A DNA stretch of 64,000 nt from NCBI RefSeq assembly GCF_044647545.1, contig NZ_CP172818.1; one strand, written 5' to 3'. The notes beneath the pieces were generated by a model, which saw only the letters and a program-made list of their open reading frames with translations, was not told the DNA's origin and did not search any database. Shown in pieces: positions 39,571-42,856 of the stretch; the stretch's first letter is position 1; every line of letters starts with the position of its first letter. This stretch comes from Escherichia coli. GTDB lineage: Bacteria > Pseudomonadota > Gammaproteobacteria > Enterobacterales > Enterobacteriaceae. Position numbers and translations under genes: made by a program.

Positions 39571-41151
39571 ATGAGTTATTCTGTGATGTTCGCTTTACTC
39601 CTGCTCACGCCGCTGCTTTTTTCGCTGCTCTGTTTTGCCTGCCGGAAATGGGGACACTCTGCGACTCGCACGGTGACAGTACTACATAGCTTAGGGATCA
39701 CACTGCTGCTGATTCTGACACTGTGGGTGGTCCAAACTGCCGCTGATGCGGGAGAAATATTCGCTGCGGGACTGTGGCTTCATATTGATGGTCTGGGCGG
39801 TTTGTTCCTCGCCATTCTTGGTGTGATTGGCTTTCTCACCGGTGTTTACTCGATTGGCTACATGCGTCATGAAGTGGCACACGGCGAGCTTTCACCCGTT
39901 ACGCTGTGCGATTACTACGGTTTCTTCCATCTGTTTTTGTTCACCATGCTGCTGGTTGTTACCAGCAATAACCTGATTGTGATGTGGGCGGCGATCGAAG
40001 CCACCACCTTAAGCTCGGCGTTTCTGGTAGGCATTTACGGTCAGCGTTCATCGCTGGAAGCTGCATGGAAGTACATCATTATTTGTACTGTTGGTGTCGC
40101 TTTTGGTCTGTTCGGTACCGTGCTGGTATACGCCAACGCCGCCAGCGTTATGCCGCAGGCAGAAATGGCGATATTCTGGAGCGAGGTTCTTAAGCAATCG
40201 TCCTTGCTTGACCCAACATTAATGCTGTTGGCCTTTGTGTTTGTGCTAATTGGCTTTGGCACCAAAACCGGGCTATTCCCCATGCACGCCTGGCTGCCAG
40301 ATGCTCACAGTGAAGCGCCGAGTCCGGTCAGCGCCCTGCTCTCCGCCGTATTGCTGAACTGCGCGCTATTGGTGCTGATTCGCTATTACATCATTATTTG
40401 CCAGGCCATCGGCAGCGATTTCCCCAACCGGTTGTTGCTCATCTTCGGCATGTTGTCGGTTGCCGTGGCGGCATTTTTCATTCTGGTACAGCGGGACATT
40501 AAGCGTCTGCTGGCGTACTCCAGCGTGGAGAACATGGGACTGGTCGCGGTGGCGTTAGGCATTGGCGGGCCGCTGGGAATTTTTGCCGCGCTGCTGCACA
40601 CCTTAAACCACAGTCTGGCAAAAACGCTGCTGTTCTGCGGTTCCGGCAATGTACTGCTCAAGTACGGCACGCGCGATCTCAACGTCGTCTGCGGAATGCT
40701 CAAAATCATGCCATTTACCGCCGTGCTGTTTGGCGGCGGTGCGCTGGCGCTGGCCGGGATGCCGCCCTTCAACATTTTTCTTAGCGAATTTATGACCGTT
40801 ACCGCCGGACTGGCGCGTAATCACCTGCTGATTATCGTCCTGCTGTTATTGCTGTTAACGCTGGTGCTGGCGGGCCTGGTACGGATGGCTGCGCGGGTGT
40901 TAATGGCGAAACCGCCGCAGGCCGTTAACCGGGGTGAACTTGGCTGGTTGACCACCTCGCCAATGGTGATTCTGCTGGTCATGATGCTGGCGATGGGAAC
41001 GCATATTCCACAACCTGTCATCAGGATCCTGGCGGGCGCTTCCACTATAGTCCTCTCAGGGACGCACGACCTGCCTGCACAACGTAGCACCTGGCATGAT
41101 TTTTTGCCTTCAGGCACCGCATCTGTTTCGGAGAAACACAGTGAACGTTAA
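39571..41151 (+). CDS. hyfF: hydrogenase-4 membrane subunit HyfF (antiporter-like)
   Basis: 526-aa polytopic membrane ORF. Confidence 0.93.
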
Positions 41152-42856
41152 TTCATCGTCAAATCGTGGCGAAGCGATTCTCGCCGCCCTGAAAACGCAG
41201 TTCCCCGGCGCGGTGCTGGATGAAGAGCGACAAACGCCTGAACAGGTCACCATTACGGTGAAAATCAATCTGCTGCCTGACGTTGTGCATTATCTTTATT
41301 ATCAACATGATGGCTGGCTTCCGGTCCTGTTTGGCAACGACGAGCGGACACTTAACGGTCATTACGCGGTTTATTATGCCCTTTCTATGGAAGGGGCCGA
41401 AAAATGCTGGATCGTGGTGAAGGCACTGGTCGATGCCGACAGTCGGGAGTTTCCGTCAGTCACACCGCGCGTCCCTGCCGCGGTCTGGGGCGAGCGAGAA
41501 ATTCGCGATATGTACGGGTTGATTCCGGTTGGCCAGCCGGATCAGCGTCGGCTGGTGTTGCCCGATGACTGGCCGGAAGATATGCATCCGCTGCGCAAAG
41601 ACGCGATGGATTATCGACTGCGCCCAGAACCGACGACTGATACCGAAACGTATCCGTTTATCAACGAGGGCAACAGCGATGCGCGGGTGATCCCTGTCGG
41701 CCCGCTGCATATCACCTCCGATGAACCAGGTCACTTCCGCTTGTTTGTGGATGGCGAGCAAATTGTCGATGCTGATTACCGCCTGTTTTATGTCCATCGC
41801 GGCATGGAGAAACTGGCAGAAACGCGGATGGGCTACAACGAAGTGACCTTCTTATCCGACCGCGTGTGTGGGATTTGCGGTTTTGCCCACAGTGTGGCCT
41901 ATACCAACTCGGTTGAAAATGCACTGGGGATTGAGGTGCCGCAACGAGCGCATACTATTCGCTCGATTCTGCTGGAAGTCGAACGGCTGCATAGTCATTT
42001 GCTCAACCTTGGCCTCTCCTGCCATTTTGTTGGTTTTGATACCGGCTTTATGCAATTTTTCCGCGTGCGGGAAAAGTCGATGACGATGGCGGAATTGCTG
42101 ACCGGGTCGCGTAAAACCTACGGTCTGAATCTGATTGGTGGTGTTCGCCGCGATATTCTCAAAGAGCAACGTCTGCAAACGCTGAAACTGGTGCGCGAGA
42201 TGCGCGCCGACGTGTCGGAGCTGGTAGAGATGTTGCTTGCCACGCCGAATATGGAACAACGCACTCAGGGCATTGGCATTCTCGACCGACAAATCGCCCG
42301 TGATTATAGCCCCGTAGGGCCGCTGATCCGCGGCAGTGGCTTTGCCCGTGATTTGCGCTTTGATCACCCCTACGCCGACTACGGCAATATTCCCAAAACG
42401 CTGTTTACCTTTACCGGCGGCGATGTCTTCTCCCGCGTGATGGTCCGTGTCAAAGAGACGTTTGATTCGCTGGCAATGCTGGAATTTGCCCTCGACAACA
42501 TGCCAGATACCCCACTGCTGACCGAAGGCTTTAGCTATAAACCTCACGCATTCGCGCTGGGCTTTGTTGAAGCGCCACGTGGTGAAGACGTGCACTGGAG
42601 CATGCTCGGTGATAACCAAAAATTGTTCCGCTGGCGCTGTCGTGCCGCCACCTACGCCAACTGGCCAGTGCTGCGTTACATGCTGCGCGGCAATACCGTT
42701 TCTGACGCACCGCTGATTATCGGTAGCCTTGATCCCTGTTACTCCTGTACCGACCGTGTGACGCTGGTTGATGTGCGCAAGCGCCAGTCAAAAACCGTGC
42801 CGTATAAAGAGATCGAACGCTACGGCATTGATCGTAACCGTTCGCCGCTGAAGTAA
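41141..42856 (+). CDS. hyfG: hydrogenase-4 [NiFe] large subunit HyfG
   Basis: N-terminal [11 protein letters not shown] and C-terminal DPCYSCTDR Ni-Fe ligand motifs; start placed at GTG 41141 ([13 protein letters not shown]...), exact start uncertain. Confidence 0.85.

Follow-up and report, generated by a model that had tools for sequence, protein, structure and literature searches.

The closest described counterpart of the gene considered here is hyfG of Escherichia coli K-12 (b2487; NP_416982.1; HYFG_ECOLI, 555 aa), which begins with a GTG codon, is preceded by a GGAG Shine-Dalgarno (SD) sequence and overlaps the end of hyfF by 11 nt. GUG has been given as the start codon of E. coli hyfG (Finney 2019), and the same source gives a GUG start for hyfG of Pectobacterium atrosepticum (ECA1241), which encodes the catalytic subunit of an active FHL-2. 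A third relative is HycE of hydrogenase 3 (FHL-1; PDB 7Z0S chain E), a group 4a [NiFe] large subunit of the same NuoC+NuoD type. We analysed the hyfF-hyfG junction in a 64,000-nt window of the genome of another E. coli strain, in which the start, SD and overlap described for K-12 are all found again. A first-pass annotation had pointed out that the listed open reading frame for hyfG starts at an ATG (41096) inside hyfF, and had favoured GTG 41141 as the real start codon. Both points hold: the ORF list and direct reading bear out the first, and the second agrees with annotation, literature numbering, homology, the SD sequence, conservation and substitution pattern alike. We conclude that hyfG is very probably translated from GTG 41141 to give a 571-aa protein, with its SD inside hyfF and its translation coupled to the end of hyfF, ATG 41096 being a chance triplet. 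The features concerned are as follows.

39571-41151, plus strand: hyfF coding sequence, hydrogenase-4 antiporter-like membrane subunit F, 526 aa, from the ORF list and annotated in the same way in NZ_CP033850.1, a record of 100% identity, and in MG1655
41096-41098, plus strand: in-frame ATG heading the longest ORF (586 aa), inside hyfF and judged not to be the start
41130-41134, plus strand: hyfG Shine-Dalgarno sequence GGAGA, within the hyfF coding region, with a 7-nt spacer from GGAG (41130-41133) to the GTG
41141-41143, plus strand: hyfG start codon GTG, as in the RefSeq/PGAP and MG1655 annotation and in Finney 2019, and a GTG in 15 of 15 taxa
41141-41151, plus strand: hyfF/hyfG overlap GTGAACGTTAA, 11 nt, the presumed site of translational coupling
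41149-41151, plus strand: hyfF stop codon TAA, from direct reading
41141-42856, plus strand: hyfG coding sequence, 571 aa, group 4a [NiFe]-hydrogenase large subunit with NuoC-like and NuoD-like domains

The surroundings are those of a hyf (FHL-2) operon, with hyfD, hyfE and hyfF 5' of hyfG and hyfH, hyfI and hyfJ 3' of it; all ORFs of the hyf gene set (33.8-47.5 kb of the window) are intact, and their order and lengths are as in MG1655. Region 40900-41400 is 100% identical to strain FDAARGOS_497, and the junction was found in 4294 of 5426 complete E. coli genomes. The translation also has the hallmarks of its family. A NuoC-like Complex1_30kDa domain is followed by the NuoD / NiFe large-subunit domain, both Cys pairs of the NiFe site are present (DRVCGICG and DPCYSCTDR), and a C-terminal assembly peptide follows an Arg (R|VTLV), matching the HyfG cleavage site described by Finney 2019.

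The ORF listing gives 41096-42856 as the longest ORF in the hyfG frame, beginning with ATG and encoding 586 aa. This ATG lies 45 nt 5' of GTG 41141; no canonical start stands between it and the preceding stop of that frame, which is open for 30 codons before the GTG. By our own arithmetic about 78% of random open stretches of 30 codons contain at least one ATG, GTG or TTG, so the presence of ATG 41096 is no more than expected by chance. In the hyfF frame the same letters (cATGat) are part of His and Asp codons. The choice of ATG 41096 as a start is an artefact of the longest-ORF rule, and a GTG start of hyfG that overlaps hyfF is ordinary and already known.

That HyfG really begins at ATG 41096, as a 586-aa protein with a 15-residue extension, is nevertheless an alternative to be weighed, since ATG is preferred to other start codons and the longest ORF begins with it. 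We consider it extremely unlikely. Its ATG has no SD sequence: the best anti-SD duplex is +0.5 kcal/mol for ATG 41096, compared with -6.6 kcal/mol for GTG 41141 and -1.7 kcal/mol for the next in-frame candidate, GTG 41213. Set against a background across hyfF-hyfG with a mean of -3.95 and a standard deviation of 2.55, the value for GTG 41141 denotes a moderate SD.

Annotation and published numbering point the same way. The RefSeq/PGAP start of hyfG is at the position equal to 41141 of the window in both NZ_CP033850.1 (571 aa) and K-12 W3110 (555 aa), and the curated MG1655 record, with hyfF at 2606917..2608497 and hyfG at 2608487..2610154, has the same 11-nt overlap; the MG1655 protein, NP_416982.1, is still at version.1 and has never been revised. 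The ATG is used in none of the curated annotations that we checked. In Finney et al. (2020, PMC7654741), a HyfG tag is placed between Gly-85 and Ala-86 and the part encoding mature HyfG is taken as nt 1-1569; these values fit GTG-based numbering only. Among protein records, the exact 571-aa and 555-aa forms each occur on at least 1000 contigs in a 15-billion-protein collection, and in several JGI entries the first residue is still written as V, the mark of a GTG start. The exact 586-aa sequence does exist in nr, under the single accession WP_152931892.1. Annotation, literature numbering and the N-termini of homologues descend partly from the same gene-calling conventions.

The homology boundaries of the protein also agree with the GTG. 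The first-pass annotation had called for alignment with HycE, and the boundary obtained fits the GTG protein: HycE (7z0s_E) matches the long ORF over the full length of HycE (E = 1.4e-291), with HycE residue 4 paired with residue 22 of the 586-aa ORF, so that the GTG protein extends 3 residues beyond the HycE N-terminus and the ATG protein 18. The alignment to the NCBIfam NuoC/D (NuoCD) model begins at residue 17 of the long ORF; the NCBIfam search returned no HyfG-specific model, only NuoD/NuoCD-type matches below their cut-offs, and these were used solely for the N-terminal boundary. Pfam PF00329 (Complex1_30kDa) covers residues 54-170 of the long ORF and, like PF00374 and PF00346, scores above its gathering threshold. 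The 15 extra residues of the ATG form match nothing in the HycE, NuoCD or Pfam alignments, and the extension thus lacks homology. Across 120 HyfG/HycE homologues, the annotated N-terminus mostly lies 60-72 residues before the invariant FGNDER anchor; the distance is 63 residues from the E. coli GTG and 78 from the ATG.

The comparison among relatives is the strongest line of evidence for the GTG as the predicted start. The sample consisted of E. coli and 14 other taxa, with junctions taken from a HyfF scan of genome contigs by exact peptide patterns, which gave 8 loci and supplied Klebsiella indica, three Citrobacter, Phytobacter and Brenneria, and from HyfG orthologues (8 loci: Shimwellia, Proteus, Pectobacterium, Providencia, Gilliamella, Dickeya, Shewanella and Yokenella). 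A GTG start with GGAGA, mostly AGGAGA, 6-7 nt 5' of it was found in 15 of 15 taxa, the start position at the eight HyfG-orthologue loci being that of the gene caller, and the anti-SD duplex of this GTG ranges from -6.4 to -8.5 kcal/mol across taxa. The two genes are closely juxtaposed in all 15 taxa, with a gap of 1 nt and an overlap of 23 nt as the extremes: Proteus and Providencia have the gap (TAAc|GTG) and no overlap, Citrobacter NCU1, Phytobacter, Gilliamella and Yokenella have a GTGA overlap, and K. indica and some Citrobacter have the overlap of 23 nt. Because the position of the hyfF stop differs among taxa, the GTG is not retained merely as part of hyfF codons.

The ATG behaves quite differently. 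It is missing in the aligned relatives, where the matching triplet is CAA, CAC or CGT, and 8 of the 14 relatives have a stop codon in the hyfG frame fewer than 45 nt 5' of the GTG and no alternative in-frame start. A comparative point in favour of initiation at this position is an in-frame GTG at -45, together with an open frame, in Citrobacter Awk4 and R56, the only aligned relatives with a GTG there. Within the species the junction is almost invariant: of 4294 E. coli genomes, 4281 match it at 99% identity or more across 110 nt, so within-species data cannot separate the two starts.

We counted the substitutions that separate E. coli from its six closest relatives at each hyfG codon position; since these sequences share ancestry, the counts are descriptive. 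In the 15 codons ending at FPG there are 21, 14 and 44 substitutions at positions 1, 2 and 3, an excess at the third position; in the 45 nt 5' of the GTG the counts are 33, 56 and 48, the highest being that at hyfG position 2, equivalent to position 3 of hyfF. The pattern 5' of the GTG fits hyfF coding alone and counts against a start at ATG 41096. These counts indicate that 5' of the GTG a coding signature is apparent in the hyfF frame only, and that 3' of it one is apparent in the hyfG frame.

The same data bear on a start farther downstream, for example at GTG 41213 (Val-25), the next canonical in-frame start, which would give a shorter protein. Shortened orthologues do appear in some databases (Sodalis, 561 aa; Brenneria alni, 566 aa; Morganella, 558 aa). 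However, the weak duplex of GTG 41213 given above speaks against its use, and residues 13-24 show conservation both in HycE (HYLAALNEAFPG) and among the orthologues; the excess of third-position substitutions argues that these residues are translated. We regard the chance of a downstream start as vanishingly small.

A further reading is that initiation occurs at both codons, so that most HyfG would come from GTG 41141 and a small amount of a longer form, specific to E. coli, from ATG 41096. In its favour, essentially all E. coli have the ATG in an open frame, and alternative in-frame starts are frequent in INRI-seq and Ribo-RET data. On the other hand, the ATG has neither an SD nor an A-rich leader, sits within an ORF that is read in a different frame and is not conserved, and we think such dual use very unlikely.

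Expression of hyf is poor. HyfG is not among the proteins in the TRAINSPOTTER N-terminomics supplements. The complete Table S3 of INRI-seq (PMC9825163) lists alternative sites for hyfD, hyfH, hyfI and hyfR, and none for hyfG within -30..+150, which argues against a downstream start; the assay is blind to the ATG at -45 because its oligos span only -30..+150.

How might ribosomes reach GTG 41141? The layout is that of a translationally coupled overlapping pair, with both genes on the same strand, the start near the upstream stop and the SD inside hyfF. The GGAG(A) in the last hyfF codons, 7 nt 5' of the GTG, may recruit ribosomes directly; alternatively, ribosomes terminating on hyfF would re-initiate at the GTG, which would constitute translational coupling. 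Either route should be open to them, since the SD lies in the end of hyfF and the hyfF stop begins 8 nt past the first base of the GTG. Folding of the RNA from 41081 to 41200 gave an energy no different from that of shuffled sequences (z = -0.08) and no sign of a structure-gated start; as the fold masks the start no more than usual, coupling is not required by structure. The first-pass annotation had called the GTG typical of coupling to the end of hyfF, and the 11-nt overlap and the SD in hyfF agree with this, coupling itself being the probable consequence. It had also placed the GTG 11 nt before the hyfF stop: 11 nt are indeed shared by the two genes, but counted from first base to first base the GTG lies 8 nt 5' of the TAA. 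The anatomy of the junction, its annotation, the homology boundaries and the conservation of the GTG start across genera were established directly in this analysis; we strongly infer that initiation in vivo occurs at GTG 41141 and is coupled to the termination of hyfF.

A second matter, separate from the start codon, is the length of HyfG. The first-pass annotation had wavered between 555 and 571 aa and had linked the difference to the choice of start. Both lengths are real, but their cause is an internal 48-bp in-frame deletion and not the start: 571 aa is the HyfG allele of this strain, 555 aa is the K-12 (UniProt HYFG_ECOLI) allele, and both carry the same annotated GTG start. The two are natural alleles that differ by the following segment.

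42296-42343, plus strand: 48-bp segment (16 aa) present here and deleted in K-12, from alignment to W3110

The segment is bounded by a 10-bp direct repeat, GCCCGTGATT, with copies at 42296-42305 and 42344-42353. Because all outgroups and HycE keep the segment, the K-12 allele is the derived state. Of 4294 complete E. coli genomes with hyf, 2179 have the segment by blastn, which leaves about 49% with the deletion. Rows sampled at even intervals from the genome ranking (29 of 60) were in line with this share, and the deletion rows all had the same flank identity. Two search settings gave misleading results: megablast with a 60-nt query undercounts the segment (410 genomes) because SNPs break its 28-nt word, and a coverage threshold of 80% is unusable for the deletion since overlap of the repeats lifts coverage to 82%.

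The deleted segment encodes VGPxxRGSGxxxD, which is conserved from complex I to archaeal hydrogenases. The motif GPxxR(G/A)SGxxxDxR occurs in 114 of 120 homologues, with five of the six that lack it being of E. coli/Shigella type, and it is free of gaps in alignments with HycE, the large subunit of Pyrococcus MBH and the 49-kDa/ND7 subunits of complex I. Finney et al. (2020, PMC7654741) describe 15 K-12 strains with strong promoters and swaps of the HycE C-terminus, none of which had Hyd-4 activity; the failure is put down there to 'additional, unknown, biosynthetic problems', and the part of the text examined makes no mention of a deletion in hyfG. Nor did we find a report of the 48-bp deletion in the literature searched, outside which most older hyf papers fell. 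We tentatively suggest, as one possibility, that a deletion removing this motif may be a main reason why no Hyd-4/FHL-2 activity is seen with K-12, even under strong promoters, and that strains which, like this one, combine an intact 571-aa HyfG with a hyf operon intact in its other genes might make an active enzyme. The high frequency of the deletion and the otherwise intact K-12 operon call for caution in reading it as inactivating.

In summary, the existing annotation of hyfG is confirmed, and the start itself has little wider consequence. Residue numbers, tag positions and constructs that take the GTG as their starting point are sound, the start of the longest ORF being an artefact. GTG with GGAGA, mostly AGGAGA, is retained in at least three gammaproteobacterial orders, even where no overlap constrains the start, suggesting that a non-ATG start of this catalytic subunit is under selection. 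The one item that deserves follow-up is the deletion allele: the reference K-12 HyfG is a variant without a motif conserved throughout its superfamily, which bears directly on why Hyd-4 activity has for so long gone undetected in laboratory E. coli.

Compared with the systems described at the outset, the window is closest to K-12, whose DNA shows no difference between the upstream ATG and the end of the hyfG start region; the K-12 protein differs by the absence of the 16 residues encoded by the 48 bp and by four substitutions (H50Q, Q132L, T168S and T321I, window to K-12). The hyc operon is arranged differently, for hycE has an ATG start after a 17-nt gap behind hycD (TGA ... ATG), whereas hyfG has a GTG and overlaps the preceding gene, and hyfF has no counterpart there. 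HyfG of P. atrosepticum is experimentally active, has its own protease, HyfK, in the operon and carries a polar N-terminal tail 7 residues longer. The related P. betavasculorum locus has AGGAGA-N6-GTG and a 14-nt overlap with hyfF, and Pectobacterium HyfG keeps the VGPxxRxSG segment, as does the allele in the window.

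One segment found in hyfG of the window strain has no counterpart in K-12:

42296-42343, 48 bp, hyfG codons 386-401, present in the window strain and missing from K-12 (MG1655, W3110).

The K-12 deletion is flanked by 10-bp direct repeats, GCCCGTGATT, and it costs HyfG 16 residues. These residues form a motif that is kept in HycE, in archaeal MBH and in the 49-kDa subunits of complex I. K-12 is not alone in lacking the segment: 2179 of the 4294 hyf-carrying complete E. coli genomes keep it, and the deletion is found in approximately 49% of those with hyf. The loss may have a bearing on why hydrogenase-4 activity has never been detected in K-12. 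We found no report of the deletion in the searchable literature.

The hyfF-hyfG junction itself had no match whatever in 1132 of the 5426 complete E. coli genomes in our collection, implying that at least that stretch of the hyf operon is missing from them. In the Pectobacterium betavasculorum locus (L013, 1-1514), hyfF is called as two genes. The first extends past the start of the locus and ends at 1037; the second, at 1050-1514, has a 154-aa product with no Pfam match. This suggests a frameshift or stop within hyfF in that assembly.

The overlap between the two genes also varies. Compared with Citrobacter and Klebsiella indica, E. coli is without 12 nt (TATTCAGACAGC-like) at 41146/41147, right behind GTG AAC and inside the overlap, which shrinks from 23 to 11 nt through this loss. 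Frame is kept in both genes. As a result, each protein is 4 residues shorter in E. coli, HyfF at its C-terminus (SELFRQR* to SER*) and HyfG at its N-terminus (NYSDSVN to NVN).

Some HyfG orthologues each occur in public sources with two N-termini. The long form has 577-581 aa, and the short one, with 13-19 residues fewer, begins within the conserved GxGYLAQVR helix:

P0038/P0043, Sodalis ligni
P0086/P0087, Brenneria alni
P0113/P0115, Gilliamella
P0033/P0035, Morganella

For the first three of these, the contigs behind the long and the short form are equal in length. Databases do disagree, therefore, on hyfG orthologue starts, though the disagreement runs the other way from the question of a longer ATG form in E. 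coli. For K-12, in vitro initiation profiling (INRI-seq; Table S3 of PMC9825163) reports alternative start sites for hyfD (CTG -22), hyfH (CTG +66), hyfI (ATG +63) and hyfR (ATG +6 and ATT +48), and none for hyfG between -30 and +150.

The GTG start is conserved well beyond E. coli. GGAGA (mostly AGGAGA)-N6-7-GTG was present at the hyfG start in all 15 of 15 taxa (window 41130-41143; relatives' loci L003-L008 and L011-L018), which span Enterobacterales, Orbales (Gilliamella) and Alteromonadales (Shewanella). In Proteus and Providencia, hyfF stops ahead of the GTG, so that the codon is not constrained there by hyfF, yet the arrangement is kept. This pattern of sequence conservation suggests that the GTG start of the FHL-2 catalytic subunit gene is under selection. 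By contrast, hycE, its hydrogenase 3 counterpart, has an ATG start behind a 17-nt gap.
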